A stretch of DNA of 63,325 bases, counting the filler, from Stramenopiles sp. TOSAG23-3 (lineage: Eukaryota), in assembly GCA_900128585.1 (NCBI GenBank). It is 7 parts of 7 records of this genome, joined end to end, with 100 filler letters (N's around TTAATTAATTAA, not from the genome) between each part and the next. Parts side by side here need not be neighbours in the genome. Positions count along the whole stretch, not along the records: positions 14,425 to 28,732 come from LT642574.1; 6 more parts are not named here. One strand, 5' to 3'. Below the pieces are notes generated by a model that was not told the DNA's origin, searched no databases, and saw only the letters and a list, made by a program, of their open reading frames with translations. Both the position numbers and the translations under genes were made by a program. How positions within the stretch are numbered: the first letter of the stretch is position 1; each line of letters begins with the position of its first letter. This document shows positions 14,325-43,227 of the stretch, in pieces.

Positions 14325-14424
14325 NNNNNNNNNNNNNNNNNNNNNNNNNNNNNNNNNNNNNNNNNNNNTTAATTAATTAANNNNNNNNNNNNNNNNNNNN
14401 NNNNNNNNNNNNNNNNNNNNNNNN
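14325..14424. other. Artificial contig linker N44-TTAATTAATTAA-N44
   Basis: Six-frame-stop spacer; identical copies at 28733, 43128, 57520, 59456 and 61391. Confidence 0.98.
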
Positions 14425-14425
14425 T

Positions 14426-14497
<72 letters not shown>

Positions 14498-14602
14498 TCG
14501 TTCGTTCGTTCTTTTTTCGTTCGTTCTTTTTTCGTTCGTTCTTTTTTCTTTCTTTCTTTCTTTCTTCTTCTTTTTCTTCTTTCTTCTTATTCTTCTTCTT
14601 CT
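14425..14602. repeat. (TTTC)n/(TTCG)n microsatellite at contig start
   Basis: Directly visible. Confidence 0.9.
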
Positions 14603-14919
14603 TTTAAAAAATTAAAATATTAATTATTTTATCATCATCATATCATCATCATTTTCATTCTTCTTCCTTCACATTCTCCTGCTTCTTCTTCAACAAAAAA
14701 ACTAAATAAAAAAAACTAGTAGAGACGACTAAAAACAATACAAAGAGAATGGAAATGTATGATTATATGTCTTCTCATATGTGGGATAGATTTTTACAAT
14801 TTTTATCATTTTTCACTTTTGGCTTTTTTTTTTGTGTGTGTTTGTTTTCTGCATTCTAGTTTCTTTTTCTTGTTCGTACCACACCAGAAAAGAGGTAAGG
14901 GGGTTAGACAACGGCCGAC

Positions 14920-16350: not shown

Positions 16351-17000
16351 GTGGAAGCAAATGGGAAGGGGGGGGCAAGGGGGTGATCCCTGGCTCTATT
16401 GTGTGCGATGCTTTTCATGTAGTATATAATAAAAGTCTTCCAAGACGCACGTCGCGTGTCTCACACAATCTGAGTGAAATCGAAAATAAAGTTTAAAAAC
16501 AAATTTAACTTCTTCTAGGTTTTTAAATTTTTGTTATTCTTCTATTCTACTATACCGTAGTAACTAAATAGCAACTAGTAAATATATTAGTTTAATCCAA
16601 TGCTCTGTAATGTTAATTATTTTTTAATTTAATTTTGAATGGTAACCAGTAGTCCCAAATTTTTCAATGATTTGTTGTTCTTCGTCATTCGTTCTTTTAA
16701 GTGACCTGGGTGGGTGCTTAAAACCGTAGTACCAAGGTACAGCACTACGAAGAGTGAACCACACAGGTAAAAATGGTTTTATTACTCCTCGTCTTCTTTC
16801 TTTTTTTTAGCTCCTTTTCAGACTGAAAAAACTAGACGACTAACTGAAAAAACAGTTCTGAAATCATGAATCATGAATTCAGCATCGATCACATACCAAG
16901 GTATACAGTCAATCGTCATCATCACCAGAGAATGATGAGTAAAAAAAGATTATTAAAAAAAAATAAAAATTTAAGAAATAATATGAAAAACAAATTAAAT

Positions 17001-17072
17001 GAGGAAGTTGATTACGATTCATATGCAAGCAATGTCGATTTAGATATCGCTCCGGATAGTTCATGGTCTGCA
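17001..17072 (+). pseudogene. Decayed coding relic (EEVDYDSYASNV...DSSWS), homologous to 42486-42775
   Basis: Colinear, gap-free codon alignment with 42689-42757. Confidence 0.5.
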
Positions 17073-17100
17073 CTATAAAAAAAAATGCTTGTTTTAATAT

Positions 17101-17368
17101 TATGCTTTAAGACTCTCAAGAAATATGAGATATATCTTATCATACCACAAGAGTTTAGAGAGAGATGAGTTGGAAGTACATGAACAAGAACACATTGGCT
17201 GTTATTTACATGAACAAAAGGAGCAGATTCATTTTCGCGGTACACGAGGAAGATAAATTTTAATTTAATACTCTCTTATATAACGCAGTAGTACATGAAT
17301 TTTAATTCTAAGGTACTTAAATAATAGCCAATTTTTTGTTTTTTAATAACACAGCCAATTTTTTGTTT
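17101..17368. repeat. Dispersed repeat family copy with an inverted pair of the ATAACAGCCAATTTT module (MITE-like)
   Basis: Reverse copy AACAAGAACACATTGGCTGTTATTT at 17183-17207; forward copies at 17321 and 17346; reverse TTAAGACTCTCA module at ~17107. Confidence 0.7.
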
Positions 17369-17482
17369 TAAGAAATATAGAATCTTTAAGAATTATAAGA
17401 GAACACACTCTCCATGATACGAATCATATGTACTAGTACGAATTTCGTAAAAGCAAAATGTGCAAATGGCAGCTTTTTGGCC

Positions 17483-18877
17483 TTACTCGTCGTCCAAATC
17501 AATAACCTCCTCGTCGTCCTCTTCGTCGTCGCCGTATTCATTCTCTTCGTATTCGTATTCTTCTTGCTCGTCCTCGTCGACTCCTTGGGCAAAGTTTTTG
17601 GCCGCCTCGCGCTCCATTTCCTCGCGGCGCTCTGCCTCACGCTGTCGCTGGAGCTCTGCCTCATCCACCTCGTCCGGTTGTTTTGCCTTGCTGTTTGCCT
17701 CTTGTGACGCGCGCTGTTGCTTGGCAAGGTGCTCGCGTTTTAAGCGCGCTCGGCGGTCTTTGCGGGACTCGCCCTCGGGGGGGGCGTCCTTTTTTTTCTG
17801 CTTCTTCTTTCGGGCGGAAGACTTTCTCTTCGTGGCCTTCATGAGGATAGAAACTTCCCCGTCGATCAATTTCATAGGCTTATACGCTGACGCATCGAAC
17901 ACCGTCGTGTCTCGCAATTCCGTCAGCATGGTATTGGGGTCCGGCGGCTGCCCCGCCACACTAATCTCCTTGTATGCCAGAGCATTTTTCTTCGGCTTTT
18001 TCCCTGCCGCCGCAGCGTCCTCAGCGTTCGCGGACACCCGTTTCATGCCCACAATGAGCGCGTCGCCCTTCGCCAGCGGGTTTTCCTTTAAAAACTCAAA
18101 CTTTAGAAAAGATTTCTTCTTCTTTTTGTCTCCCTTTCCTGACCCTGAGAGAGCGATCTTATACTTTCTTACGTTGACCGTGCAAAAGCGAAGCAGGCGG
18201 TGGCGTGTCATGAGGGACGCCAAAACGTGCTTGTTCTGATCGGACAGCGTCCCGTTAACCGCAAGGACGACCGCGCCGTTCTTCTTCTTCACGCACCGTT
18301 GGAACGACACATCGTTCGTTATTTTCCCGTAGGTGAGCTTCACCTTGTCTTTCGTGTACGCCAGCAAGCCCTCCTTCACCGCTTTGTCCCCAATGTACGT
18401 GGACGGGACGAGGTGGGGCTTCGCACCGTTGACGAAGACGAGTGCCACGTGGCTCGTTTTCTTCGCTGCCTTGGACATTTTGAACTTTTCCAAGGTGGAT
18501 TTTCCACTGGGCAGTTTTGCGTTGCAATCTAAGATCCCAGTCCGAAAATCCCTGGAATACCGCACGGTATCTGCCACTTCCCGGAACACACTGTGCACTG
18601 CTGTGGCCCCGTCGTTGCACAGCACCAGCCACGGCTGCCCCGAGAAAAAGACGTCCTTCAACTGCTTGATATTGTCAACCGAAAGCTTGGCGTACGGTGC
18701 TGTAAAGAAGCTGTACACCACCCACGCGAACTGCAGCACCCCCAAACCAAGTATGCCTAGAAAAATAACGGAGAGACGTTTCTTCGATTTTTGAAAAGCA
18801 GTCTCCTCCTCGAACCCTGATTTCTTTCTCTCCGCCGACGACCGCCGGGAGTCCTGCCGCTTGATTTTGGAAGGCAT
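17483..18877 (-). CDS. Membrane-anchored thioredoxin-fold-like protein with charged C-terminal tail
   Basis: One N-terminal TM (LSVIFLGILGLGVLQFAWVV); VFFSGQPWLVLC...GILDC Trx-like strands without CxxC; acidic tail; likely start MPSKIK at 18877. Confidence 0.75.
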   Translation of the reverse strand: MPSKIKRQDSRRSSAERKKSGFEEETAFQKSKKRLSVIFLGILGLGVLQFAWVVYSFFTAPYAKLSVDNIKQLKDVFFSGQPWLVLCNDGATAVHSVFREVADTVRYSRDFRTGILDCNAKLPSGKSTLEKFKMSKAAKKTSHVALVFVNGAKPHLVPSTYIGDKAVKEGLLAYTKDKVKLTYGKITNDVSFQRCVKKKNGAVVLAVNGTLSDQNKHVLASLMTRHRLLRFCTVNVRKYKIALSGSGKGDKKKKKSFLKFEFLKENPLAKGDALIVGMKRVSANAEDAAAAGKKPKKNALAYKEISVAGQPPDPNTMLTELRDTTVFDASAYKPMKLIDGEVSILMKATKRKSSARKKKQKKKDAPPEGESRKDRRARLKREHLAKQQRASQEANSKAKQPDEVDEAELQRQREAERREEMEREAAKNFAQGVDEDEQEEYEYEENEYGDDEEDDEEVIDLDDE

Positions 18878-19916
18878 GGCAAACAAATCAAATCAAAACA
18901 GCCACACCTGAACTTCCGCCCGCCTTGTATAAACGTGTCGGTCGTTGTAGCGCCCCTACGTACCACGAAATCCAAAAAAAAAATACCTCACCCGAGGTAA
19001 CTTGGTAACTTTTCCGATGAAAAAAATACAAAACAGAAGGGTAAAGAAATGTAAAAAATGCAAAGGGAACACCCCCTCGACGCATAGTGGAAGAAATGGA
19101 AAGATTATACTGTATTATAAAATAGATTCGATTCGATTGGATGGGATTGGAATGAATGGTAGGATGGACGTGAATAGCTGAGTACCAGGTAGTACCGGTA
19201 CCTGGTAGTATAAGTACATCATCATCATCAATATTTAATTATTATTATTATTGGCCTTTTACTACTTTATTTTTTTATTATTTTTTATTTATTATTATTA
19301 GACTAATTATCATCATATTATTATTATTTATTATTTACATTAATAGAAAACGTGACTATGATATGATAATATTTGTTTATATTTATGTGATATAATATTC
19401 TATAATCCAATAATAATAATAATAATTCCAATTTAATTAAATTCAAATGAGAAACTAAAAGAAAAGAAGAAGAAGAAGACAACATGTTGTTTTATAAAAT
19501 GTTGTCAGATTTATTATATTATTATTAGTATTATTTATTATAGTTGTTGTGAATGAAATAGAAAAAATAGAAATAGAAAAAATAAAAGTTCCTTCTTCTA
19601 TCTTCATGTTATTATAATACTGTACCAACAACCAACACAGGGAATTTTTATAACTAGTCAAATAATACATCAAAATACAAGGAGGAGGAGGGGACGGAGA
19701 ATAATAATTTTTAATAAATAAATAATAAAAAAAAATATATTATTATACTACTCCATTTCAAAATTCAATTTCAAAAAAAACAATGGAAATTGAAATTGAT
19801 GGGTGAAAGAAAGAAAGAAAGAAAGAAAAAGATGGAGACGGAATGGTTCCTCTTCTTTTTAATCTATGAGTTGGAGGATTTAGATTGTACAGACAGTAGA
19901 AGAAAAAACCCTTAAA

Positions 19917-21899
19917 ATGTCTTCTGGTGGTTTAGATTTTGATAGTTTAGAAGCTAAGATAGCGTCCGCGTCGCGCCTTGGCGCACGGTTCGGGGAGGAG
20001 GACGTGCAAAGCACGGGGGGCAGTTCGAGCGCGATGGAAAGTACGGATGGTGGGGGTGGGAGAAAAACGCTCGCAGGGGGAGGGGGGGGTCAGCGTGGGG
20101 GTACTGAGACGGCGGCCCAGCAGAAAGAAGACGGGGAAGGCTACTCCTCTGCGTGGACCGATGACAACGAGTCCGAAGGCGCCACGGGCCAGAGCCGACG
20201 GGCCCTCCCGCCGCGCCCCTCGAGTTCCAGGAAAAGAACGTCGCCGCACGTAACATTTTCCATGGAGCCAGCGACCACCATGGGCAGCAGTAAGTTTGTA
20301 GACGATGATGAGTCGGAGGACGAGCTGTCGTCTTCGTCGTCCTCGTCACTGTCCAGCGAGGAGAGCGATGATGAGCCGAGCGAGCCAAGGTTCACCAGTG
20401 CCAGCCGAGAGGGAAAGTACTACAGCGACAACAGCAGCTTGGACAGCTCCTCGGAGGAGGAAGCGTATTCTCCGTTCAAATTAAAGATAGACTTTACGGA
20501 AATTATAGCATTGGGTCTGCCCGCGCGCCAAACCTTGGGGGAAAATTTGGGGGTCTGGAGGGCCAATTACAACATGATGGGGTACATCTCCAAACCCATG
20601 CGAAGGTTCATCGCGAAGCATGACTTGAGCGCCGACGTCGCAAAAATGTTGTTGAAAGCCCCCGACGTAGAAAGCAGGCTAATGCCCCACCTTGGGCTAA
20701 GCCCAGAGAAGCGGAAGGCCCTGTCTCCCGCGGCGGAATTGCGGGAAAGTGGGACGGTCGAAAAGTTCAAAAGCCCCGTGCAACCCTCGCCCCAATCGCC
20801 GGGGGGGGCTCCCCCCGCCCCCGCTCCCGCCAACGCGTTCACGGCAGCGAGCGGGAAACTGCTGCACAGGGTCGACGCCATGATCCAGAAGGAAGAGCGC
20901 GCGCTGGAAAAAATAGAAAGGAAGAGTCCGGTCAAGCCCAAGGCGGGCGCGACCGATAGGAATCCAGCCAAGCAGAAGGCGCAAGGGAAGAAGGCTGCAC
21001 GGTCGGGTGTGGTGAGCATCCCATACGTTGCCGGTGCGATCCCCAACAGTACCAAGAGCTTGGACGATATCCTCGGCGTGGCCGACCTCGCAACGGGGCA
21101 GACCGTGGAGGAGCGCGCGGTCGTCAAAAAGCGACGGAGGCGGAAGAAGAAGGGCGTGCGAAAGGGGGCCGACAGCATGCTGTACCAACGGACGACCCTC
21201 TGGAAACAGGAACTGCTCGACAAGCGAAAGGCAGAGAAGGCGCGAAAAGATTCGAAGAACGAAATAGAGTTTCAGCAGTTGCGGGAGCAGTACAAGGTCA
21301 TGGGAAATTTTGACGGGGAAAAATTCTTCAAATCTCAGCAGGCGTGGGCGAACCGTGTCGAAAGCGTACGGAGAAAGAAGAAGGAAGAAAGCGACTCTTT
21401 GAAAATGGCAGAGTGCGATTTCGATCGCTACCACAAGAATTTTTCCCGAGCTGGGACGAAAGGCGGGGAGAGCATTTACGAACGGCGCATGCGATGGAAA
21501 GCGGAGAGAAAGAAGTTTTTGAAAGATCAGCAAGAAGCGGAAGAGAAAAAATTAGAGAAAGAATGTACTTTCAAACCAAAATTGAAGAATCGAAAGTACC
21601 GCGCGGCCCTTGCGGCAGCCTCGAAGAAACGGCGGGGGAAAGACGGAAAACCAAATGCCAACAAGGAAAACGTTGTCTCCACTAAAAATAAAACCGCGAA
21701 ATTAAAGGGTGCGCGCGGAAGGAAAACGAAGCGCACGGTCGCCGAGACCCCGAAAGCAAAGGCGGGGGGAGATGCGGAGGATATCTTTGCTTTGGCAGAC
21801 CAACTGCTCTCGAAGTCTGCAAAGTGGGCCGCCAAATCGGAACGGGAACGGAAGGAATTGGACCTGTTTACCGTGAACATTCAGCGATTGTTCAGCTGA
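19917..21899 (+). CDS. Low-complexity, basic coiled-coil protein (possibly ciliary/microtubule-binding)
   Basis: 660-aa ORF; Ser/acidic N-half; SIYERRMRW...EKECTFKPKL motif of the ECTF-x-P type seen in microtubule-associated ciliary proteins. Confidence 0.75.
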   Translation: MSSGGLDFDSLEAKIASASRLGARFGEEDVQSTGGSSSAMESTDGGGGRKTLAGGGGGQRGGTETAAQQKEDGEGYSSAWTDDNESEGATGQSRRALPPRPSSSRKRTSPHVTFSMEPATTMGSSKFVDDDESEDELSSSSSSSLSSEESDDEPSEPRFTSASREGKYYSDNSSLDSSSEEEAYSPFKLKIDFTEIIALGLPARQTLGENLGVWRANYNMMGYISKPMRRFIAKHDLSADVAKMLLKAPDVESRLMPHLGLSPEKRKALSPAAELRESGTVEKFKSPVQPSPQSPGGAPPAPAPANAFTAASGKLLHRVDAMIQKEERALEKIERKSPVKPKAGATDRNPAKQKAQGKKAARSGVVSIPYVAGAIPNSTKSLDDILGVADLATGQTVEERAVVKKRRRRKKKGVRKGADSMLYQRTTLWKQELLDKRKAEKARKDSKNEIEFQQLREQYKVMGNFDGEKFFKSQQAWANRVESVRRKKKEESDSLKMAECDFDRYHKNFSRAGTKGGESIYERRMRWKAERKKFLKDQQEAEEKKLEKECTFKPKLKNRKYRAALAAASKKRRGKDGKPNANKENVVSTKNKTAKLKGARGRKTKRTVAETPKAKAGGDAEDIFALADQLLSKSAKWAAKSERERKELDLFTVNIQRLFS

Positions 21900-22316
21900 C
21901 AGTCTCAGCGTCAGGTTTGATAAATTATTAAGGTTCTCTGTTATTAATAAAATATTAACAAAAATTAACACTTCAAAATACAGTGATAAATTTTTAATTA
22001 TCATACTTTTTATTTAAATAATTTAAAAGTCTTATTTTATATCTAAGAAGTATTTAATAAACGATAAAATATACTATATTAGGAACACAGCATCAGTATT
22101 AATAATAATAAAGCCCTCAGCAGCAGTAATTTCTTTAAATTTTAAAAGTACGAGGAGGCAAAGAAGGATTGAAGAACGAAGTACCACGCGCCTTTACCAG
22201 TATTAAAATTCCATATTAAAAATACCAGGTAAGTTGTAAGAATGTAAATTTACGGTACATAGTGTTTACTTTTAGGGCCTCGGGTTTCTTCCCCACTGCC
22301 TGGCTTAACACGCTTT

Positions 22317-23180
22317 TTATTCCAACTCCTTCAAAATCTTCTCCTGGTCTTCCGACAACTCCCCTTCCTTCAGGCTTGCGATTTTCGCTTCTTTTTCTAG
22401 CTTGGATTTCTTCGCTGTTTCGGCTTTGAACTGCTCCTTTAAAATGTCCACGCTGTTTTGGATTCGGTCCAAGTTTTCGTGGGTTGGAGCTCCTTTAAAT
22501 TGCTTGCCAAGGCGTTCCTTTTCGTGGACAATGCCCGCCCGTTCGTCCCTCAACTCCGCGATTCGGTAGTCGACGCGCTTGCGTGCAGTCTCGTAATCTA
22601 TTCTGTTTTTCTCGAGCTTGTCTTCCATGTCGAATTTTGCGCCTTCTACGGTGCGCAAGTACTCGTGGTTTGCAATTTGCAGGGAGACGTTGTACGTCGC
22701 CTCGCGCTCCTGCGCTTTGGTCATGTTTTTGACGCCCAAGGTTTGGAGGGCCGCCTGCAATTCCTGCGCCTTGGAGCTGCTTTCTTTCAATAGTTTTTCT
22801 GCCCTCTCAACCTTCACCTGGTTCTCGTACTTGTCTTTCTCCGCCCTTGCCAAGGCCTCTTCTAGGGCATGGACTACGTTGTCCTGGGATTTGACGTGCA
22901 TCTTGGCTACTGCCATCATTTGCTGCAAGTCCGAGGTGTTAAGCTTCAGGGCCTGCACCTCGCTTCCCGCGTACGGGGGCAAGTACGGCATCTCCGGCTT
23001 CTCTCGCAGTTCTCGCAGCTCTGCTTTCAGCTCACGCTCCAGTTGGCCAAGGAAACCGTCCAGAAAATCCTCCCCCCCGAGTTCTGTCTTCACAGGCGAG
23101 GACGACCTGACCGACGTGGCATACGAGCAACTTAAACTAATAACACCAACTAGTGCAACACCAAAGTACAAAGTTCGCAT
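22317..23180 (-). CDS. Secreted coiled-coil protein
   Basis: 287 aa; signal peptide MRTLYFGVALVGVISLSCSYA; heptad-rich body. Confidence 0.8.
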   Translation of the reverse strand: MRTLYFGVALVGVISLSCSYATSVRSSSPVKTELGGEDFLDGFLGQLERELKAELRELREKPEMPYLPPYAGSEVQALKLNTSDLQQMMAVAKMHVKSQDNVVHALEEALARAEKDKYENQVKVERAEKLLKESSSKAQELQAALQTLGVKNMTKAQEREATYNVSLQIANHEYLRTVEGAKFDMEDKLEKNRIDYETARKRVDYRIAELRDERAGIVHEKERLGKQFKGAPTHENLDRIQNSVDILKEQFKAETAKKSKLEKEAKIASLKEGELSEDQEKILKELE

Positions 23181-24165
23181 GGTGTTTGTTTCGTTCCGTT
23201 CCGTCTACGTCTTTCTTTTTTGTGCAGGCTTTGCTCTAAATTACAAACACACAAAACTGAAACCAAATGGATCCGCGTGTACACAGACTATATTTTTCCT
23301 CTTCTCCCCTTTTTCTTAGAGTAACCTTTCTTTCTTTCTTTCTTTCTTCCATTCATTCAACCCGAAACCCTTTCATTCATTCACTCACTCGCTCGCTCAC
23401 TCACTCACTCATTCATTCACTCACTCACTCACTTTATCCCATAAAAAGGAAGGTTATAAATAGAGGCATCATATAAAATATAATTAAATACAATAATATA
23501 GAAGTAACATTGTAATTCTATCCTTTCATGTATAGTCCGATTCCCCTATCTAAATTATACATAATATGTATTTACAATTGTAGACTTAAACTCCAGGAGG
23601 AAGGAAGGAATATAAGAAGGAATTTAAATAAGAAGTTCTTATTCTTACTCCCCTCTTTTTTTAATCATTTCAAAGGAAAAGGAAGGTCAAATGACGCCTC
23701 ATTTATATATGAGAATATAGAATTAGTATTAGGATTAGGGTTATATTATTAGAAGAAGTACGAGGAGTATTATAAGAAGTAGCTATAGCCATACCTCTAT
23801 ACGTCGCTTCGCTCTCCTTGCTTCATTTTTAAAAGGAGCGAGAAGCAAGACGTAGAAGACGAGACACCATTACGAGCCTGCCTCATAGTGTGAAGGGGCC
23901 AGCTGGCCAGGGCCGTTATTTTCCCTCATCATTAATTCTATTAATGTGGACATATTAATTAATAATTATTAATAATAAATTAATAATCAATATCCATATA
24001 TCACACATATCACACATCACACACATCACCAATCACCACTACAATTCATCATACAATCATCATATAATAATAATTATAATATTGAAAACGCAACCGCGAG
24101 ACGGAAAGAATGCATTGAGAGACTGGAGGTGAGTTGAAGCCACCTTATCGACGTTTGCCAACAAC

Positions 24166-27100
24166 ATGGAAAAACAAAAAAAAGGACTGCCGAAGCGTGA
24201 CGAGGCTAGGGAACCGATGGACCTTACTGGTGGTCTTGGAGCCGGAGGCGATGAATTAATTATTTTGGAAGCGCGCTACGGTTGGACGCAAGATCTTTGG
24301 AATGCTAAACAATTGGCCACCACGGCACTTTCCGGATTTAAGGACGTAACTGCCATTGTGCAGGCAGACGTATCGAACAACGAGTTGCGTTTGGACCCAA
24401 AGGAAGATCCTACTTGGTACGAGAAGCATTTTGACTTTGGCATTTTTCATTATGTCGGCGGGGTTCGGCGGCTAGGGGTACGGTATAAGTTTGGGAAAGA
24501 AGGTGCGGAGGAGGTGTTCATGTCCAAGACACGTCATAAGAGACATGGCAACTGCAGTATCCCCTTAGTCTTTATCAGTGCTCGTACTGTTGTTGGTGGT
24601 GTTGGTGGTAACAAGGGGACCGAAGTTGCGACCCTTGCGCAAGAAAAAGAGAGCGAGGCCATGGTGGCCACGAGGACCGCCCTTGAGAAGCTCCAAATGA
24701 ACAACATGTCGGAGCTCGTCGATACGATCCTCTCTGATACAGGCTCAAACGAACAACGCATAATGTTCATGACAACGACGCATGTAGAACTTTTCCAGGT
24801 CTCCATGGTGCCTCAGCTGCTTGATGCGTTTGAGATAATTGGTACACCATCAGTGGTCATCAACGCCAGAGACGCGTGGTGCTGGCGAGAGCACAATAAG
24901 ACACACAAGTTTTTCGAGGGCTGCGATGCCATGGACGCGAGTGAGAGCAAGACCCTTCAGCACCAGGTACAACTCTTTGTAACTGAAGTACTCATGCCTA
25001 TCATTGTGGAGAACAATGCGTTGGTTATTTGCCGGGGCAATTCACAAGATGGACTCGCTATGGCACTGGGCAATGCATTTGCGAAGCTGCGCCCGACAAA
25101 TGCCATGATGCAATCTGGCAAGCGCCCACGGCTACTTGCACTAATCGATGCTGCTGTCATCAACGCTGCTAGCCGTAGAAAAGGCACTGAGATTTATAGG
25201 GTAGCACGAGCGTGCGATAAGAGCACTCGCGGTAGTACCACACAAGGCTGGAACTGCTTCTCAGACCCTAAATTTAAGCATGTAGCCGAGGATTGGCCAG
25301 ATCACCATAGACACTACGACTTGATCCCCGGGGCGACAGACATCTTGGTGACGCGAACTGAGCCTACTCTCTTGAAGAATTCGCTCGTTCAGTTCTTCAG
25401 TAGTGGATTTGGCCAGGTTCCATGCATCAACATTCAAGCTGCAGGTTTAGAATACCCCGGGATGGATGGGTTATTAGACGTGATAAACCGTCGATCACCA
25501 ATTCTCCTCCTTGACTCGCGTCTGCGCGGACGTTTTCCGCGTGCCAAGGGCTTCGAGCCTAATCAGCAAAAAGATGAGCGAATCGAACCCGATGTACATG
25601 ATCCTGATTGGTGGAAACCACAAAACAGTCGCCATTCTCCGAGTGAGCTCACGAAATCTTTTTACGAGCGGCTCAATGGAAGGCAAGGACCCCCCGTAAC
25701 TGTTGCCGAGGCGATGGACGAAATTATTCGCGGACATTGCGAGCTTCTCCTAGGAACACATGGCGCAGCGCAGATTCTTTATGAAACACACAGCGATGCA
25801 CAGCCGCTCAAGCGGGGGTATGAGAAACAATTTGACCACCATATGATTGGTATTATTGCACTTGTCAACCAGGTACTTTCTGGCAAGGGTCGGTGCCTTG
25901 CGGGAGAACGAGCTCATGTTGCAGATTTGTTTCATACAAAGCATAACAAAAAGAAGAATATGGCGAAGAAACGGGACAAATATTCAAGCACCTCGCGTGA
26001 CATCAGCAAAACTTCGGTGATGCCGATCGGACAAGTTGTCGACGAATGTCAACAATGGCCAGATGGAATACCGAAGAATCACATCAATATACTGCCAATT
26101 GGGGCAGCAATTGCAGAGCTTTCTACACCAAAAATGGAGCCGACAAACATGAAGGTGCCCACAGAATTGCCCTCCGAGGTTGCGAAGGCTGCGGCATGCG
26201 ATCCCACGTTCACACAATTAATTAACTGGCTATCTGCACTCGATCAAGTGGTAGTAGGGCACGACGACGAGATTTTGACGGGCACTATAAAGAAAGTTTG
26301 GCAGCAGGAAAAGCTTCATGAGCATTGCATGGGAGGATTGTACGATGTCCTTTTTGACGGTGCCGAGAAAGAGGAGATTCGAGTGCCCAGGCGATTCACT
26401 CACGGGGGTTCTCAGATCCTGTATCCGGTCGTCGACTCTGTTTGCGACAAATCGCTCGGGGGTGGAGAATTCCTCGCCAATGAAAAACTTGAGGTTGGAA
26501 TGCGAGTCTATGGTCGGTCAAGGAGCACGGTTATGGCACGCTTGAAAACCCTTGCGAGCTGGCGGACAGCAGAATTCAAATCCGGTGACTCTGAAGATGA
26601 CGCTAAGTGGATGCAATTACACTGCCTGCTCAAGGAGGCTTCTCGTTTCGGCGGACCCTTTGGGGGCGCAAACGGCTCCTCGCAACTGATTAAATCTGGG
26701 AGTTTGTTCCATCTCACCGAAGTCAAGCGTGTCCTTGACGAACATTTTGACCATCTCGACCGGCTCCCGACCTGCTGCACGCTGCAGGAGCTCAAAGTGA
26801 TTCGTGAAACTTGGAACGTCATTGACACTGCAGAGAAGGGGGCAAATCGTGCCAAGGCGGAGACGAAGCTCGCGTTCAAGATGAGTCTTCTACTTGGAAC
26901 TGCCATTGCCAGTCTCTCAGTGATCGCTCCTATGTACCCGGATATCAAGGACTTGGGGCCAGCAATTGTCGGATTATCTTTGATTTCCTCGCTCGTTACA
27001 AGCTTCGTAATTTATAGAAATCCAAAGCAGCGATGGGAGCAACTGCGAGCAGCTGCGCTTCTCTTGGAAAGTGAGGTATGGCAGTTCCGCACACGGACTT

Positions 27101-27861
27101 GCAGTTATGGCACAAGCCTCGACATTGCGAAATATGGAACGCCGAAAGATAGACTTTGTAGGGTTCTCAACGAGATGCGAGTCGTGGTTTTGGAAAAAGC
27201 CGGTGTGAAGCAGACGACTTTCTTACACGAAAACGCCAAAGAAAGTATGGCCGCGAACATTTTCAAGCACGGACAGTACGATTTTATGGGTCTTGATCAA
27301 AAGGTGACAAACGGAAAGAAAGATAATAAGGAACCGAACGACGAGGAGGCAAAGTCACGTTTGTTGCTCCGCTCGTTTGACACTCACCACTCCCCACTGG
27401 AAGCGGATGCATATGTTACGCTTCGGTTGGATCACTTTATTCGCTTCTACCAGCGACGGCTTCCTCACAACTATAGAAACCGCACTATTGTGCACATGCT
27501 GCTGGTGCTGGGTACGTTGGTAAATGCACTGCTCGCCTTTATTGGCCAGGTTCCGTGGGTTGCTTTAGTGACAGTCATCTCGAGCGGGGTGACTTCCTGG
27601 AGCGAGTTTGCCGGGAGTGAGAAGAAATTAGAACGTTACTCTTCAGGCATTACCACGCTGAAGAACCTCAAGATGTACTGGGAGAGCCTAGACCAGACGT
27701 CTCGTGCAAATACACAATCTATTGACCACCTAGTTAAAATGACGGAGGATATCATTGGTGGAGAGAGCCGGGCATGGCTTGCGACGAGTCAAAGTGCAAA
27801 ATCTCTTGCTGAACCAGTTGGAGAGCAATCGAGCGGTGTTGAGAACAAAAAGCGTGTTTGA
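24166..27861 (+). CDS. SLOG(LSDAT/TRPM-like) + tandem SLATT 2TM effector-domain protein with N-terminal DUF3395-like domain
   Basis: ELIILEARYG...DVTAIVQ...LGVRYKF (DUF3395-like); PSVVIN...IVENNALVICRG...LIPGATDILV...VPCINIQAAG...PILLLD (SLOG-like); 2TM+PKQRWEQLRAAALLLESEVWQFRTR; Y..LRL...FY.RR+2TM+LERYSS..W (DUF4231/SLATT-like). Confidence 0.75.
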   Translation: MEKQKKGLPKRDEAREPMDLTGGLGAGGDELIILEARYGWTQDLWNAKQLATTALSGFKDVTAIVQADVSNNELRLDPKEDPTWYEKHFDFGIFHYVGGVRRLGVRYKFGKEGAEEVFMSKTRHKRHGNCSIPLVFISARTVVGGVGGNKGTEVATLAQEKESEAMVATRTALEKLQMNNMSELVDTILSDTGSNEQRIMFMTTTHVELFQVSMVPQLLDAFEIIGTPSVVINARDAWCWREHNKTHKFFEGCDAMDASESKTLQHQVQLFVTEVLMPIIVENNALVICRGNSQDGLAMALGNAFAKLRPTNAMMQSGKRPRLLALIDAAVINAASRRKGTEIYRVARACDKSTRGSTTQGWNCFSDPKFKHVAEDWPDHHRHYDLIPGATDILVTRTEPTLLKNSLVQFFSSGFGQVPCINIQAAGLEYPGMDGLLDVINRRSPILLLDSRLRGRFPRAKGFEPNQQKDERIEPDVHDPDWWKPQNSRHSPSELTKSFYERLNGRQGPPVTVAEAMDEIIRGHCELLLGTHGAAQILYETHSDAQPLKRGYEKQFDHHMIGIIALVNQVLSGKGRCLAGERAHVADLFHTKHNKKKNMAKKRDKYSSTSRDISKTSVMPIGQVVDECQQWPDGIPKNHINILPIGAAIAELSTPKMEPTNMKVPTELPSEVAKAAACDPTFTQLINWLSALDQVVVGHDDEILTGTIKKVWQQEKLHEHCMGGLYDVLFDGAEKEEIRVPRRFTHGGSQILYPVVDSVCDKSLGGGEFLANEKLEVGMRVYGRSRSTVMARLKTLASWRTAEFKSGDSEDDAKWMQLHCLLKEASRFGGPFGGANGSSQLIKSGSLFHLTEVKRVLDEHFDHLDRLPTCCTLQELKVIRETWNVIDTAEKGANRAKAETKLAFKMSLLLGTAIASLSVIAPMYPDIKDLGPAIVGLSLISSLVTSFVIYRNPKQRWEQLRAAALLLESEVWQFRTRTCSYGTSLDIAKYGTPKDRLCRVLNEMRVVVLEKAGVKQTTFLHENAKESMAANIFKHGQYDFMGLDQKVTNGKKDNKEPNDEEAKSRLLLRSFDTHHSPLEADAYVTLRLDHFIRFYQRRLPHNYRNRTIVHMLLVLGTLVNALLAFIGQVPWVALVTVISSGVTSWSEFAGSEKKLERYSSGITTLKNLKMYWESLDQTSRANTQSIDHLVKMTEDIIGGESRAWLATSQSAKSLAEPVGEQSSGVENKKRV

Positions 27862-28230
27862 TGACTCATTCCTTGGTTACCCTGTAGTACTGCACACCAC
27901 TATCCTCGAACGAATGATAAATAATGTAAAAAATTAAGGAACTGCAAAACGTAAATTGTGATGATAGTGGTGTATCATACAATTTATATATTAATATTAT
28001 AATTTTAATAATTCTCTTACTTAAATAATTTAAAGATTTTATTAATACGTACTACGATTCGCATACGAAATATACACACATGTATGAGTTTGCTACAGCG
28101 AACACACTACGAGTTCGCCCGTTGCACGCACGCTTAAAGAAGGGCGAGACTTTTGGAGAAAATAATTTTAAACGCCAATATTATAATTTAAGAATATATC
28201 ATACTATATAAGATCAAACTAAAAAATCGA

Positions 28231-28288
28231 GATAGGATTAGGGTTGGATTTGAAGTTAGTATTTGATTTAAAATGAGAGTCTTAAAAC
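28231..28288 (+). repeat. Dispersed repeat family copy GATAGGATTAGGGTTGGATTTGAAGT...AAAATGAGAGTCTTAAAAC
   Basis: Closely similar reverse-complement copy at 46991-47055; partial copy at 3266-3403. Confidence 0.85.
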
Positions 28289-28442
28289 GGAGGAAAAATA
28301 TCTCGCCGGTTCCTACATGTCTAAGACACGTAGAAGTGGTGAAATACGTATCCTCCGCCTCCGGCGCCGAACAGGCTCAAGATGATGATCAGAGCAATGA
28401 TTCCACCATCGAGTACGAAAGTTAGTACGTTCTGTTTTAAAA

Positions 28443-28732
28443 TTAAAAGACGAACGCCAACAAAAACACTGCAGGCAGGCACATCATTAGGCTCGCGTAC
28501 AGCGTTGTTGCGGACGACAAGTTGTTAGGTTCCACAAAGTTTTCGCTTGGCGATGGTGATACCGAGTCTGGAGTGGATGATGGCGATGGTGATGCCGCAC
28601 TAGGACTCTGGGAGCTACTGGACGTCGGACAGGCAGCGCCAGAGGTCACAAACGCCCCGCTGAGGTCACACGTCTTGGTCACGTTCGCGAACGACCCGGC
28701 GTTGCCGTTGGTGCAGGTGTAAATGATGGACC
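28443..28732 (-). CDS. 3' fragment of a cell-surface protein (CCP/Sushi-like module, Ser/Pro stalk, GPI-anchor signal)
   Basis: Open from the contig edge: SIIYTCTNG...KTCDLSGAF...CP, Ser/Pro-rich linker, LSSA omega-like site, hydrophobic tail. Confidence 0.7.
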
Positions 28733-28832
28733 NNNNNNNNNNNNNNNNNNNNNNNNNNNNNNNNNNNNNNNNNNNNTTAATTAATTAANNNNNNNNNNNN
28801 NNNNNNNNNNNNNNNNNNNNNNNNNNNNNNNN
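28733..28832. other. Artificial contig linker
   Basis: N44-TTAATTAATTAA-N44. Confidence 0.98.
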
Positions 28833-28865: not shown

Positions 28866-31800
28866 ATGTCCCCGGTGCCGTCCCTGACGGCGAAGCATAG
28901 AACTCCGTCGGGGGTCGCAGAGGCACCGTGGTCTTGCATCTTGTGCCGCCACAAAAACAAAGCGCTGGGGCGCGCGACGGGCAATAGAGTGTGCGCCAAC
29001 TGCCGCATCGCGCTGGGTAGGAATGCGTCGTTGAAAAGCAAAAACTGTGGTCTGGAACACCTTGGGAAAGAAGGCAGCCTTGTATTTGACGGTATAATCT
29101 TCGATCCAAGGTTGTGGGGAACTAAGGCGCGAATGCACTCGGGGTGGCCCCAGGCGTGGGAAATATTGCGTGCCCAGGGCTGGTCCTTGGGTTTGAAAGC
29201 GAACCAAAAAATCCAGGCCCCGTTTAGATACGATGGCGAGTTTCAAATTCCAGAAAGCAGGGAGGCGCGGGGCTTTAAATCCGTGCGTGACGCGGTAGAG
29301 TATATTTTTGAGCATGGGTTAAAGATCCCGAACTTCGTCCAGTACGATGGAGTCTTTGTGTCTTTGAAGGAGTCGTGGCACGTAACCCTGAAGACGTTGC
29401 GAGTGGAGCTTGGCTGGTCCATTTCGAACAAAAATACGAACAAAACCCTAACCTACGTAGAACCAAGAAAGGTTGGTGTGCGAGACCTGCAAACGAGATT
29501 TTCCAGCGAAATTGCGGTTCTGACCCATTTGATTGTCAACGGCAAGGCGAGAGACCACGAGAGCGATACGGGATCCGACAGCGACGAGGAGCAGGAGCCG
29601 CCTCCGTCCCCCGATGACCAACATTCCCCTAGTAACCAAACCCTCGCTATTTACCACGCGACGGCAGGTCAGTCCTGGAAAGACGCATGGTACCTGTTGA
29701 AAGAGGCGGGCTGGAGAAGTTGCGCTGGCGGGGCGTTGTCCAAGACGATGTTTGTGGCGCCCGGCTTTTCTCCGACAGGGAGACGCGCAGGGGTAATGGG
29801 TGTAAATATGTTTCGATCGAAAGAGAAGTTACTGATGCACGTTAACCTGACCTTAAAAAAGTTCGGTAACCATGTTGCGAAATCCGTTCCTGCCGACTAC
29901 AGCGATATTGACGTAACCCTGGGGTTTAGGACAGCGTGGCGAAAACTTCGAGCCATGGGCTGGCAGCAGAGGCCTCTCGATTACGTTGCAGGGGGCTCTC
30001 GATTACGGGGTATGATGTACATGCGCCCCATGGAGCATCTCGGCAAAATTGAAATTGAAGGCCTGAATGTATTTAAGAGTCCGGGCGATGTCTTAAGGCA
30101 CATCACCTCCGAGAGGGCGAAATCTGCGAACGGTACGGCCGGGGAACGCGAAGGGGTGGGCGAGAGGGGGAGCGAGGAGGAGGAGAGAGAGAGCAGTATC
30201 AATGACGAGGAAGAGGACAGCGACGATGGGTCGGACGACGGCTTTGTCCCAGTCCCAGACTACAGCATATTGGACTTGGACGCGCCTTTCCGTGACATAT
30301 GGTACTTGCTGAAGCAGGCGGGCTGGAGTTACTGTCGAGGAGACGACGTGTACTCATTTTTCTATCTGAGACCGGGGATCCACAAGAAAACCGAAGGTGT
30401 CATGGGCAAAACGATGTTCCGAAATCACGCGGAAGTCAAAGCTGCCATTCGCCAAATACTGGCAGGAAAAAAAGTCAACGTTACCCCAAAAGTTTTGCTC
30501 CATATGAGCAGACGGCGTGGACAGCACGCCCCAAAAAATATAGGGAAAGCAAATGGCGTTTCTTCTGGAGAGAAGAAATGCATCAGCAGCGCAAAAACGA
30601 AGGCTGGGCCGTCAGGCCAGGGGGGCGGGGCGGCAGCGAAGAAACTGAATCCCAAAGCCTTGAGACAGAAGAAGGCGGAAGAACAAAAAGCCTTGAAGGC
30701 CTTGCAGCGGAAGAAGGCGAAAGAAGAAAAAGCCTTGCAGCGGAAGAAAAGAGAAGAAGAAAAAGCCTTGAAGGCCTTGCAACGGAAGAAGATTGAAGAA
30801 GAGAAGGCCTTGAAACGGAAGAAAAGAGAAGAAGAAAAGGCCTTAAAACAAAAGAAGATAGAAGAAGAAAAAGCGTTGGAGGAGAAGAAAATCGAAGAAG
30901 AGAAGGCCTTGAGACTAAAGAAAATAGCGGAAGAAAAGGCGAAGCAAACACAGAAAAAAATTGAATGGGGAAATGCATGGCATCTGTTGAAACAAGCAGG
31001 TTGGACCCATTGCTCTGGCGACCTCGTCTACCCGTACTACTATCTTAAGGAGGGCGTGAAAAAATCCACCGGCGTGTTTGGGGTGGACAAATTCAGGACA
31101 CCAGGGGAGGTATTGGAACACTGCCGAAAGAATGACATCGACGTTTTCTCACGAAGAAGCCCGTCATTTTCAAAAAAGGCGGCACGAAAAAAAAATGTGG
31201 TGATAGTGACTAAGAAGAAAAAGAAGGGCCGTAAAAAAAAGGGCCACAAACTCAACTTGAACGGCGATTGGAATGATATATGGCACTTGTTGAAGCAGGC
31301 GGACTGGGGCTACGTAAAGGGCGACCAGTTCACTTCGTACTTTTTCACAAAGCCCGGGGTGGCGAAAAAGAGCGAAGGCGTGCTTGGGGAGACGATGTTT
31401 CGAACTCCCGATGACGTGATTAAGCATTGCAAAGAAATAGGAATGCATAACCAACCTTTGGACATGGAATCGTCAGAGGACGAAGTAGAAATCGTTGAAG
31501 TGAAGCGCCCGGCCCCGAAGAAGAAGAAGCGCAAATTTGCGGACAGCGGGAAATCGAAAGCGTTAAAATCCATGCACACGCTCTTCCGCAAGGAAGTAGA
31601 CATCGATGGCAACTGGAGGGATTTGTGGGAAGATTTAGTGCACGCAGGTTGGAAATGGCGCGCAGGGGTGGGAGACTTCAAGTACATGTATTTCTCCCCG
31701 GGGGCAAACGCAGAAACAGCGAAGCTAGGGGTCGATATGTTTGTATCCGAGCGCGACGTTATTGAATACCTGCGAGCAGAACTTACTAAACTCGCAGAAG

Positions 31801-33800
31801 CCTCGGAAACGGCAGACGATGATGCGTACCACCAGCCGGTCAGTTCCGTTAACAGTGTGCTAGACTTGAACGCCGCCTGGGTCGACATATGGTACCTGCT
31901 TCGGCAAGCGGGCTGGGGGTGGTCGAGTGGGGACAAATTTCACTCGTACTACTACCTGAAACCGGATGTTTTGAACAAACGATCCGGAAGGCTCGGCATC
32001 GACATGTTTACATCGGGGGCTGAAGTGATCGCCCATTTGAAAAAGAACAACCCAGCTTATGCCATTCGGGACAGCACTGCTATCGATGCCATAGTTCCCG
32101 CCACGCCTTCCGTTGCCCCCTACCTTGTCGCATCGATCAACGCTGGCAGTTTTCCAGCCGATGTGATAAATGCAAGCTCGATCGACGACCCCGTGAATTT
32201 CTTGTGCTCAAAATGGCCAGGGCGATCGGAAACCATCCAAAGCCTTTCTTCGTTGGTCGGCGAGCCGTCCGACTGGGCCCAGCCTCTGACGCTTGTTTAT
32301 GGAGGGCCTGCGACGGGGAAAACCCTTTTAGTCAACGACTTCTTTCGCGCTTCTGGCGTTCTTCATGCCGTGGTCGATTGCATGCATATTCATAAGCCTC
32401 AAGAACTTTTTGAGATCACATTAAATCAGATACAAAGCGCGCTGCGGGGAAACAGGGGTGGCAGTAATAGCAACGGGAACGACCAAGACGCTGGGTGGGA
32501 TAGCGATGGTGGGGAGGAGACCATTGCCATGAATGCAACTACCGCACCGCAGAAAGAGGCTGCTGCTTCAAACGCGAACAGCGGGCGCGATCCAGCAGAT
32601 GAAACCATGCCGGACGATGTCGCTGAGGACATGGAGGCCTACAATGGCACAGACTCGCCTGTCCGGAAAAGACGCTGCAACACAATGACCCTGTTTTCCA
32701 AGCACTTGGTAGACCTTTTGCAAACGGACATGGCCTGCTACTTGATTTTTGATAATGCAGATCGGCTGCATGGGCTTGGTCGCGGCTTACTGCCAAGCAT
32801 TGTGAGGCTCCAGGAGTTGACCTCTCGAAACATTGGGGTGGTGTTTATTACACAAAATGCGTGGGAAGACTTCAGCGACCATACGTGCGGCGCCATTCCA
32901 GTTAACCTTCATATCCCCGGCAACTCGTCGACTCAGATAGTAGAGTTAGTGAGCGAGTATTGTCCTGCCCACGATGACCCGGAGTTCTTTCGAAGTTTCG
33001 TGTACCACATCCATAGTGTTTTCCGCTCGATGGTGAATGACGTGCGTGAATTGCGGTACGTCGTGCAGCTGCTCTACCCTGTTTTCCGAAAGGTTGTTGC
33101 GGAGGAGGAAAATAAATCACGCGCGACGGCCGCTCGGGGTAACCTTTCCTCGGCGTCCCTTCCAACGAACGGTGTTGATCGAGCCGTTGTGACAATTGCG
33201 CAGCGCCGAATGCAGCCGGCATATCGTCTGGCCCAACAACGACTCCTGTTGCACGACATAACTGCTGAGGAAATATACAACGAGATATCCAGCACCTGCG
33301 TTTCTTCCTCTCGCGCAGACCTAATTGCCCAAGAAGGGGGAAGGCGAGCGCAGACATTGTCCACTGCCGTAGAATTGCCCATGATGACAAAATTTATTCT
33401 AATTGCAGCTTACCTCTCGTCGCACAACCCTGCGGATACGGACATGAAATTATTTACGCACTATCGCAGTGGAAGAAGGAGAAAGAGCCGCAGCCACGAA
33501 GGAAACAATCGGGCAAAAAACGATAAACTGCGCCGACCCAAAGTGTTCCCTTCTGAGCGCATGTTTGCTATCTTTATCAGCCTGGTCACGGAAATGTTGG
33601 GAACCAAGGAGGCTGAGCGAGCGACTACCATTGATCTGTATGCGCAGGTCGCGTCGTTGGTCCGATTGAATTTGCTGGCTCAGCAGTCCGATCCAACAAA
33701 CTTGGACCAAATTAAATTGATTTGTAACGTGGATCTTGAAATTATTCACGTGGTCAGTCGTCAAATTAAACTGAATCTGTCCCGGTACTTGCAATCGTAA
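28866..33800 (+). CDS. ORC5: Origin recognition complex subunit 5 with ~1100-aa N-terminal extension (RanBP2-like Zn finger + 9 GW repeats); may be 5'-truncated by the contig edge
   Basis: C-terminal ~530 aa: WPGRSETI, Walker A GGPATGKT, LIFDNADRL, ELPMMTKFILIAAYLSSHNP..D..LF, PKVFPSERMFAIF, QVASLVRLNLL, CNV...LSRYL. Confidence 0.9.
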   Translation: MSPVPSLTAKHRTPSGVAEAPWSCILCRHKNKALGRATGNRVCANCRIALGRNASLKSKNCGLEHLGKEGSLVFDGIIFDPRLWGTKARMHSGWPQAWEILRAQGWSLGLKANQKIQAPFRYDGEFQIPESREARGFKSVRDAVEYIFEHGLKIPNFVQYDGVFVSLKESWHVTLKTLRVELGWSISNKNTNKTLTYVEPRKVGVRDLQTRFSSEIAVLTHLIVNGKARDHESDTGSDSDEEQEPPPSPDDQHSPSNQTLAIYHATAGQSWKDAWYLLKEAGWRSCAGGALSKTMFVAPGFSPTGRRAGVMGVNMFRSKEKLLMHVNLTLKKFGNHVAKSVPADYSDIDVTLGFRTAWRKLRAMGWQQRPLDYVAGGSRLRGMMYMRPMEHLGKIEIEGLNVFKSPGDVLRHITSERAKSANGTAGEREGVGERGSEEEERESSINDEEEDSDDGSDDGFVPVPDYSILDLDAPFRDIWYLLKQAGWSYCRGDDVYSFFYLRPGIHKKTEGVMGKTMFRNHAEVKAAIRQILAGKKVNVTPKVLLHMSRRRGQHAPKNIGKANGVSSGEKKCISSAKTKAGPSGQGGGAAAKKLNPKALRQKKAEEQKALKALQRKKAKEEKALQRKKREEEKALKALQRKKIEEEKALKRKKREEEKALKQKKIEEEKALEEKKIEEEKALRLKKIAEEKAKQTQKKIEWGNAWHLLKQAGWTHCSGDLVYPYYYLKEGVKKSTGVFGVDKFRTPGEVLEHCRKNDIDVFSRRSPSFSKKAARKKNVVIVTKKKKKGRKKKGHKLNLNGDWNDIWHLLKQADWGYVKGDQFTSYFFTKPGVAKKSEGVLGETMFRTPDDVIKHCKEIGMHNQPLDMESSEDEVEIVEVKRPAPKKKKRKFADSGKSKALKSMHTLFRKEVDIDGNWRDLWEDLVHAGWKWRAGVGDFKYMYFSPGANAETAKLGVDMFVSERDVIEYLRAELTKLAEASETADDDAYHQPVSSVNSVLDLNAAWVDIWYLLRQAGWGWSSGDKFHSYYYLKPDVLNKRSGRLGIDMFTSGAEVIAHLKKNNPAYAIRDSTAIDAIVPATPSVAPYLVASINAGSFPADVINASSIDDPVNFLCSKWPGRSETIQSLSSLVGEPSDWAQPLTLVYGGPATGKTLLVNDFFRASGVLHAVVDCMHIHKPQELFEITLNQIQSALRGNRGGSNSNGNDQDAGWDSDGGEETIAMNATTAPQKEAAASNANSGRDPADETMPDDVAEDMEAYNGTDSPVRKRRCNTMTLFSKHLVDLLQTDMACYLIFDNADRLHGLGRGLLPSIVRLQELTSRNIGVVFITQNAWEDFSDHTCGAIPVNLHIPGNSSTQIVELVSEYCPAHDDPEFFRSFVYHIHSVFRSMVNDVRELRYVVQLLYPVFRKVVAEEENKSRATAARGNLSSASLPTNGVDRAVVTIAQRRMQPAYRLAQQRLLLHDITAEEIYNEISSTCVSSSRADLIAQEGGRRAQTLSTAVELPMMTKFILIAAYLSSHNPADTDMKLFTHYRSGRRRKSRSHEGNNRAKNDKLRRPKVFPSERMFAIFISLVTEMLGTKEAERATTIDLYAQVASLVRLNLLAQQSDPTNLDQIKLICNVDLEIIHVVSRQIKLNLSRYLQS

Positions 33801-43127: not shown

Positions 43128-43227
43128 NNNNNNNNNNNNNNNNNNNNNNNNNNNNNNNNNNNNNNNNNNNNTTAATTAATTAANNNNNNNNNNNNNNNNN
43201 NNNNNNNNNNNNNNNNNNNNNNNNNNN
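43128..43227. other. Artificial contig linker
   Basis: N44-TTAATTAATTAA-N44. Confidence 0.98.

Follow-up and report, generated by a model that had tools for sequence, protein, structure and literature searches.

A stramenopile gene for a protein with a predicted SLOG-type sensor domain and two SLATT membrane modules

A single open reading frame (ORF) in a 63,325-nt stretch of DNA from Stramenopiles sp. TOSAG23-3 (GenBank assembly GCA_900128585.1), referred to below, at its full length and with filler included, as the window, encodes a eukaryotic protein that belongs to the LSDAT(SLOG)-DUF4231-SLATT_1 family. The family is uncharacterised but already catalogued: since clusters of the Atlas as well as relatives in the sequence library carry the same three-domain core, public databases already contain this core, in part with annotation. 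The C-terminal part of the protein comprises two different SLATT modules recognised by sequence profiles, and the middle region is placed in the LSDAT clade by its predicted structure. On balance we consider it probable that the protein is a ligand-gated SLATT conductance, in which the SLOG domain would sense a ligand, a linker would relay the signal and several subunits would open together. An initial annotation, made from the sequence alone, had proposed a SLOG-SLATT-SLATT protein encoded by one frame (24166..27861, +) and acting as an antiviral or cell-death effector; its reading of the frame holds, as the ORF begins with ATG, is free of internal stops and comprises 1231 codons plus the stop.

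The predicted sensor domain

The initial annotation had placed a divergent SLOG/LSDAT-like region at ~24740-25520. The fold prediction bears this out, with a Rossmann-like alpha/beta core at residues ~185-449 (nt ~24718-25512), but no sequence profile does. For the prediction, residues 140-560 were aligned with 25 relatives from the library and the alignment was modelled with AlphaFold2 (AF2), which returned a mean predicted local distance difference test (pLDDT) score of 71.2 and a predicted template modelling (pTM) score of 0.70, with the blocks of the core at about 80-95. The Foldseek search of this model against the PDB reported 136 matches at E-value ≤1e-3 (best 1.4e-7), and all 48 Foldseek rows among the matches listed (ranks 1-50) are TRPM channels. 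Re-alignment with VIA gave Z-scores of 15.7-17.7 for all 50 entries listed, every one of them a TRPM N-terminal region, with residues 28-392 of the model spanning TRPM residues ~16-400.

A VIA scan independent of Foldseek was carried out against 48,161 representative chains, 14 of which reach a Z-score of at least 8. TRPM2, TRPM5, TRPM7 and TRPM8 occupy ranks 1-8 (Z 14.5-17.8), the best match having a Z-score of 17.8 and a root-mean-square deviation (rmsd) of 4.6 Å over 240 aligned residues; the top Z-scores of the re-alignment and of the scan, 17.7-17.8, are based on 239-240 residues. The best match outside TRPM, at rank 9, is 9nw3_6A, a 256-aa central-pair chain of the ciliary tip (Z 13.1, 208 residues aligned), and the lower ranks include LOG (Z 8.9), TT1465, YpsA, YgdH, MCP, DprA (6.6, 6.4) and the SLOG domain of ThsA (6.0, 5.6). 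Judged from the model, the matches of the scan together appear to span much of the SLOG superfamily. When residues 150-545 were compared with the Atlas by language model, the look-alikes, which we use as a lead only, came exclusively from LSDAT_prok and LSDAT_euk clusters (0.87-0.88). The modelling indicates that the middle region is a structural, rather than a profile-defined, member of the LSDAT clade, closest to MHR1/2 of TRPM. According to PMC13143021, MHR1-2 of TRPM constitute the LSDAT family within the SLOG domains and harbour an ADP-ribose site in zebrafish TRPM2.

The family-conserved positions at the strand ends are mostly kept and may line a putative ligand pocket. The TOSAG23-3 protein retains G291, D385, G389, D450 and R454 (frequencies in the family: 20/26, 18/20, 17/20, 14/14 and 12/14, respectively), as well as S451 and R452 (9/14 each).

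As a separate observation on the fold, 9nw3_6A may be SPIKE1 (an identity that is unchecked), an LSDAT-domain "spike" protein which the available part of a preprint describes as a structural part of the ciliary tip of Tetrahymena; if so, the fold also serves as a microtubule-associated structural part.

The membrane modules

Two C-terminal SLATT hairpins had been proposed at the outset, and the profile search suggested there as a check found both expected families above their cut-offs. DUF4231 matches residues 887-983 (42.4 bits, Pfam cut-off 24.7), with SLATT_3 marginally below the Pfam threshold in this first module; SLATT_1 (PF18181) matches residues 1083-1204 over its full profile, 1-122 (52.6 bits, Pfam cut-off 26.3), and the corresponding NCBIfam model (NF033634) scores 78.2 bits (cut-off 41). 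The signatures quoted in the initial annotation were located at residues 957-975 (W..LRAAA..LESEVW.FR, nt 27034-27090), 1083-1098 (Y...RL....FY..R, nt 27412-27459) and 1155-1172 (ERY....W, nt 27628-27681), and no other stretches are as well conserved in the family.

Hydropathy peaks at residues 902-920, 931-949 and 1108-1126, and the AF2 model of residues 480-1231 exhibits two helical hairpins with block pLDDT mostly 80-95 (first module mostly 80-94, core of the second 84-95). The helices of the second module extend over residues ~1080-1126 and 1129-1149 in this model, the latter corresponding to the fourth membrane helix (~1129-1149), so that a hairpin of two transmembrane (TM) helices is predicted under each of DUF4231 and SLATT_1. 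The helix after TM2 reads RW.QLR.AAL.LESE.W.FRTR and the stretch after TM4 W.EF...KKL.RYS (W-E-F at residues 1145-1147); W957, R975 and R977 are invariant. Conservation in the family is highest in the SLATT helices and the juxtamembrane motifs, where 39 columns are invariant among five sequences. With two hairpins, the C-terminus would lie on the same side of the membrane as the large N-terminal part and, because the N-terminus does not resemble a signal peptide, this side is most simply the cytosol. A homo-oligomer test with three copies of residues 873-1205, run without controls, gave a score of 0.00 and says nothing either way.

The linker that precedes the first hairpin (residues 532-872) matches no Pfam family and contains a few family-conserved motifs. 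Its pLDDT is below 50 over nearly all of residues ~480-865 of the protein (model residues 1-386), too low for a comparison with MHR3/4 of TRPM.

The alpha-pore toxins SmhB and AhlB, the top Foldseek rows for the C-terminal model, were rejected as evidence (E-values 0.04-0.16, rmsd >30 Å). In a library of viral structures, SLATT proteins of giant viruses match the hairpin region weakly, among them one from Klosneuvirus KNV1 (E-value 1.1e-2, prob 0.99) and one from Fadolivirus (prob 0.97); the viral matches, which together cover E-values of 0.011-0.097 and prob 0.90-0.99, also include unnamed rows, one from Tupanvirus. We regard them as leads only.

The N-terminal module and the relatives of the protein

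The DUF3395-like beta module which the initial annotation had seen at ~24250-24520 was recovered by PF11875 (DnaJ-like_C11_C, formerly DUF3395) at residues 31-115 (nt 24256-24510), with scores below the cut-off of 27.1 bits both for the whole protein (E-value 0.01, 16.1 bits) and for its first 145 aa (E-value 3.1e-4, 21 bits). Among 27 module-bearing proteins, 15 match PF11875 at E-value ≤1 (best 1.5e-7). The profile comparison points to a remote relative of DnaJ-like_C11_C, not to a proven member. Residues ~25-129 are matched by 26 other proteins of the library, where the partners of the module are ankyrin repeats, RING, U-box, F5/8-C, ricin lectin and a weak match to ADP-ribosyltransferase; the module occurs in none of the 30 other proteins that carry SLOG-like or SLATT parts. 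Its most likely role is to recruit the protein, or to regulate it, by way of a partner. The sequence L.I.EARYGW...KDVT..V...V.NNEL..NP, found in library proteins P0011-P0054, characterises a promiscuous and presumably protist module.

The scan of the full library (1.84 billion representatives) with residues 1-845 as the query reported 53 matches at E-value ≤1e-3. In 8 of the 20 matches that were scanned for domains (949-1394 aa), DUF4231 and/or SLATT_1 follow the same middle domain, and residues 860-1231 as the query added four relatives of 788-1051 aa (E-values 4e-33 to 2.8e-39). A word-indexed homologue search found no match for the whole protein and one (P0055) for the family alignment. Look-alikes of the whole protein in the Atlas (0.91-0.93) are clusters of 50-93 members with SLATT_1 and DUF4231; LSDAT_prok is present on 64% of the 58 members of one cluster and on 16% of the 50 members of another. 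These clusters are 50-80% Eukaryota; Haptophyta are the commonest group in all but one of the four, where Pseudomonadota take this place. The relatives that share the core, about 800-1400 aa in length, are mostly eukaryotic, a statement for which the labels of the Atlas clusters are the sole source of taxonomy.

Ahead of the SLOG-like domain the relatives carry WW or zf-C2HC, or no recognised module, and variable N-terminal interaction modules appear, from these predicted architectures, to be a trait of the family. The initial annotation had remarked that a housekeeping-like distribution would weaken the idea of an immune function; such a distribution is not seen, because the relatives are many and divergent and differ in their N-terminal modules. 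Scans with a single peptide pattern gave 8 matches in IMG/VR viral contigs and 6 in prokaryotic genome contigs, none of which was confirmed, and both results are weak negatives.

One relative stands apart from this architecture: in P0056 (788 aa) SPRY (residues 234-354) is followed by DUF4231 and SLATT_1, leaving no room for SLOG, and the C-terminal part alone matches our protein. This layout implies that tandem pairs of SLATT modules occur with alternative front domains.

Proposed mechanism and alternative explanations

In the proposed mechanism the cytosolic SLOG domain would bind a small, probably nucleotide-derived ligand, which by the precedent of TRPM2 and ThsA could resemble ADP-ribose. 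The ~340-aa linker and the amphipathic, conserved juxtamembrane helices on either side of each hairpin would relay the binding event, whereupon the SLATT hairpins of several subunits might together open a channel or pore that conducts ions. With respect to the output, we lean slightly towards a change of membrane permeability triggered by stress or infection over routine signalling. A precedent on the bacterial side is the SLATT gene which, in the available part of a preprint (10.64898/2026.04.29.721553), is required for DRT10 defence and for toxicity in E. coli.

Several results weigh against a ligand-gated conductance. The search for LSDAT profiles that the initial annotation had called for failed: neither these nor other SLOG profiles of Pfam match the whole protein at E-value ≤10, LSDAT_euk (PF18139) and LSDAT_prok (PF18171) match 0 of 26 family members at this threshold, and a profile of the sensor family matches none of the PDB chains at E-value ≤10. 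The fold evidence is that of a predicted model with a mean pLDDT of 71. Within the predicted pocket, the family motif T-N-x-Q-A that follows the first strand reads T-T-x-H-V (N204, Q206 and A207, found in 18/22, 20/22 and 19/22 of the family, are replaced by T, H and V), C295 (Cys in 21/26) is Asp, and the loop after the central strand keeps just one widely conserved Gly; because N204, Q206, A207 and C295 are replaced, the pocket may be altered or inactive. No gene for a ligand-producing enzyme of the TIR, SMODS or cGAS-like type was found among 21 further ORFs of the window that were scanned, so that in this stretch the signal generator envisaged by the initial annotation did not come to light. 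Since a stand-alone LSDAT protein is structural in the ciliary tip, the LSDAT fold is not always the gate of a channel. As for the membrane part, Foldseek found no match for the C-terminal model in the PDB at E-value ≤1e-3, the best wide VIA Z-score of the hairpin region (8.8) is to generic or designed helical bundles, and the passages available from the source texts present pore formation by SLATT as a prediction only.

Among the alternatives, a physiological and non-lethal TRPM-like channel in the plasma membrane or an organellar membrane, whose SLOG domain would sense a metabolite or second messenger and tune the ion flux, is possible, although we rather doubt it. The nearest solved folds are indeed the ligand-sensing MHR1/2 of TRPM, the gene lies among ordinary nuclear genes on its own contig with a G+C content at third codon positions (GC3) inside the range of the window, and RNA contigs from three marine runs of three different studies fit routine expression. 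However, a TRP or other ion-transport domain is absent, the membrane part is of the SLATT type, which the available passages of the source texts tie to conflict systems alone, and the family is patchy and divergent instead of being conserved one-to-one. The effector of antiviral defence or programmed cell death favoured by the initial annotation, in which a nucleotide alarm induced by giant viruses would open a lethal pore, is a special case of the ligand-gated conductance, and we find it unlikely. It would agree with the role of SLATT modules as effectors of prokaryotic defence systems (according to the parts of the sources available), with the exchange of front modules in a divergent family (WW, zf-C2HC, the beta module, or SPRY in the place of SLOG), which is common in conflict genes, with the presence of the beta module in proteins of the RING, U-box, ankyrin and lectin types and beside a weak match to ADP-ribosyltransferase, and with the giant-virus SLATT proteins seen as weak structural matches. 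The available part of a preprint also reports a SLATT gene of Gephyrocapsa huxleyi that is oppositely regulated with and without a compound blocking viral lysis, but this gene is neither shown to be orthologous nor shown to have a SLOG domain. The protein matches no family of PADLOC-DB 2.0 at E-value ≤10, and the window contains no recognised TIR, SMODS or cyclase gene. Gene neighbourhood weighs little in eukaryotes, and the window consists of separate contigs.

A membrane-anchored scaffold or receptor, in which the SLOG-like domain would have lost the ability to bind a small ligand and control would be exerted through protein contacts of the N-terminal module and the linker, seems improbable to us. 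The replacement of N204, Q206 and A207 and the Asp at C295 would fit it, as would the protein-interaction type of the front modules in the relatives (WW, SPRY, zinc finger) and the purely structural LSDAT protein SPIKE1 of the Tetrahymena ciliary tip (again as stated in the part of the preprint available; the match at Z 13.1, 9nw3_6A, is unchecked as SPIKE1). Yet the pocket-side residues D385, G389, D450, S451, R452 and R454 are retained, and the 39 invariant SLATT and juxtamembrane columns in five sequences argue for an active membrane function. That the gene is an artefact, i.e. a contig from contaminating bacteria, a pseudogene or an assembly error, is hardly credible: the window does consist of short contigs with spacers between them, which is the pattern of a binned or single-cell assembly, but the frame is intact across 3.7 kb, the same piece carries a CRAL/TRIO gene and, as elsewhere in the window, has GC-rich ORFs set apart by AT-rich spacers, independent marine runs of both DNA and RNA contain contigs that match the gene, the look-alike clusters are mostly eukaryotic and the motif scan brought up no prokaryotic locus.

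Going beyond the ligand-gated conductance itself, we speculate that marine protists may run a nucleotide-alarm immunity of bacterial style, in which infection (e.g. by giant viruses) would produce a signal derived from NAD or a nucleotide that opens LSDAT-SLATT-SLATT pores, the "ARYGW" module would be a shared adaptor linking these pores, E3 ligases, lectins and ADP-ribosyltransferase-like enzymes in a single network, and the family would survive as an intermediate form that connects the SLOG-SLATT effectors of bacteria with the TRPM channels of animals. We consider this wider scheme a long shot.

The gene and its genomic context

No intron signal was found in the ORF, and its start codon is supported by the library fragment P0002 (170 aa, 93% identity), which shares the first residues. 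Three RNA runs contain contigs inside the ORF (identity mostly ≥95-99%) without splice joints, none of them upstream of 24372, a gap that carries no weight. They suggest an expressed, intron-free gene, with the reservation that such libraries can hold DNA. Parts of the gene are present in 20 of the 24 public runs listed, from 13 studies; these are marine or seawater metagenomes, 6 of them RNA libraries. The 26 population differences listed for the matching contigs comprise 10 synonymous and 16 non-synonymous ones, many of which fall in a single divergent contig or close to contig ends where the depth is <5, and they are no measure of selection.

The window consists of seven separate contig pieces (four of ~14.3 kb and three of ~1.8 kb) joined by identical spacers (Table 1), and genes beyond 14425-28732, the ORC5 gene included, are therefore not proven neighbours of the SLATT gene. 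The piece 14425-28732 holds the SLATT gene, the CRAL/TRIO gene and three ORFs without a Pfam family, with GC-rich ORFs and AT-rich spacers between them as elsewhere in the window. From the predicted products of its ORFs (SLC12, CRAL/TRIO, ORC5, urocanase, CFAP69, a DnaJ protein and a VWA-UBC fusion), the DNA of the window is evidently eukaryotic. A tblastn search of the window with nine proteins of the family and its modules returned this locus alone, with no second copy. The initial annotation had noticed a less GC-biased codon usage than in the neighbouring genes, which is correct for the piece, where the GC3 of the SLATT gene (0.527) is the lowest among five ORFs (0.66-0.78 for the other four), but not for the window, where GC3 ranges from 0.42 to 0.855 and 4 of the 21 other long ORFs lie below it. 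The GC3 of the gene gives no sign of recent transfer.

Elsewhere in the window, a run of 69 N at 8143-8211 lies within a (GAA)n simple repeat and differs from the contig spacers. The ORC5-like gene (28866-33800, +) begins directly past a spacer, so its 5' end may be cut; its product contains AAA_16 and ORC5_C at residues ~1116-1642 and an N-terminal extension of ~1100 aa without a Pfam family, made of many ~70-aa units (W..W.LLK.AGW...G......Y..PG) and a Lys/Glu-rich repeat block. The ORF at 53170-54822 (-) fuses a von Willebrand A domain with a ubiquitin-conjugating (E2) domain.

Table 1. Positions in the window of the gene, the predicted parts of its product and the contig spacers (HMM, hidden Markov model)
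Feature	Position (nt)	Strand	Residues	Basis or remark
Whole ORF	24166..27861	+	1231 aa	RNA-library contigs inside, without joints
Beta module	24238..24552	+	25-129	Core motif L.I.EARYGW; own HMM
LSDAT-type SLOG domain (predicted)	24622..25758	+	~153-531	Leading helix, core, trailing helices; AF2 and fold search
Linker	25759..26781	+	532-872 (~340 aa)	No Pfam family; AF2 pLDDT mostly <50
First SLATT module (DUF4231, PF14015)	26782..27114	+	887-983 (Pfam)	Pfam, hydropathy, AF2
TM1 (predicted)	26869-26925	+	902-920	First SLATT module
TM2 (predicted)	26956-27012	+	931-949	First SLATT module
Second SLATT module (SLATT_1)	27412..27777	+	1083-1204	Pfam, NCBIfam, hydropathy, AF2
TM3 (predicted)	27487-27543	+	1108-1126	Second SLATT module
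TM4 (predicted)	27550-27612	+	~1129-1149	AF2 model
Spacers, six identical	14325-14424, 28733-28832, 43128-43227, 57520-57619, 59456-59555, 61391-61490			N44-TTAATTAATTAA-N44

Comparison with known systems

Fusions of SLOG sensors with SLATT effectors were reportedly predicted by Burroughs et al. in 2015, as is also said in passages that cite this work. In the full-text literature that was searched, which does not cover Burroughs et al. 2015 (where some may be listed), no description of a eukaryotic LSDAT-SLATT fusion was found. The closest known architecture is that of the LSDAT_prok-DUF4231-SLATT_1 proteins, whose three-part core is identical in composition and order; unlike them, the TOSAG23-3 protein has a sensor too divergent for the LSDAT profiles, an additional module resembling the C-terminal domain of DNAJC11, and a eukaryotic host. 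The single-motif scan of prokaryotic contigs did not retrieve a close prokaryotic LSDAT-SLATT locus. If the proposed mechanism is true, the family would be the eukaryotic counterpart of a bacterial sensor-pore design. As a single-polypeptide, intron-free construct the protein provides a compact test case for the predicted SLATT conductance. For marine ecology it represents a candidate part of the stress or virus responses of abundant protists, related sequences being present in seawater libraries from 13 studies.

Bacterial defence systems whose SLATT effectors stand alone or are encoded in operons (the DRT10/UG17 RT-SLATT system and the phage-carried TIR-SLATT gene pairs) share with our protein the 2TM SLATT modules, found by the same profiles. 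Their effectors are short, belong to other SLATT subfamilies (e.g. SLATT_5) and have the sensor or signal generator in a separate gene, whereas here two different SLATT modules are arranged in tandem and fused to the sensor. The SLOG domain of ThsA from the Thoeris system exhibits the same superfamily fold and is a precedent for the binding of a cyclic ADP-ribose isomer, but it is a distant match (Z 6.0 and 5.6), and the effector of ThsA is a SIR2 NADase, not a membrane module. The beta module has a remote profile similarity to the C-terminal domain of DNAJC11 (PF11875), from which it differs in scoring below the gathering cut-off, in lacking a J domain and in its position at the N-terminus of a membrane protein.

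No solved structures match the predicted sensor better than the TRPM channels, of which the N-terminal residues ~16-400 align with it over ~240-260 residues (Z up to 17.8). They also share its logic, with a cytosolic SLOG domain ahead of a membrane conductance, which is predicted in our case. In contrast to TRPM, the TOSAG23-3 protein has no six-helix TRP domain, TRP box or NUDT9-H, contains two SLATT hairpins instead, and shows an identity of 10-14%; no ion-transport family of Pfam matches it at E-value ≤10, and it has just four hydrophobic helices, all within the SLATT modules. Because the TRP pore domain is absent, the protein is not a TRPM channel. Should the proposed mechanism hold, the family would also be a natural comparator for how TRPM gained its ligand-sensing N-terminus, since it combines the sensor fold predicted here with a membrane module very unlike that of TRPM.

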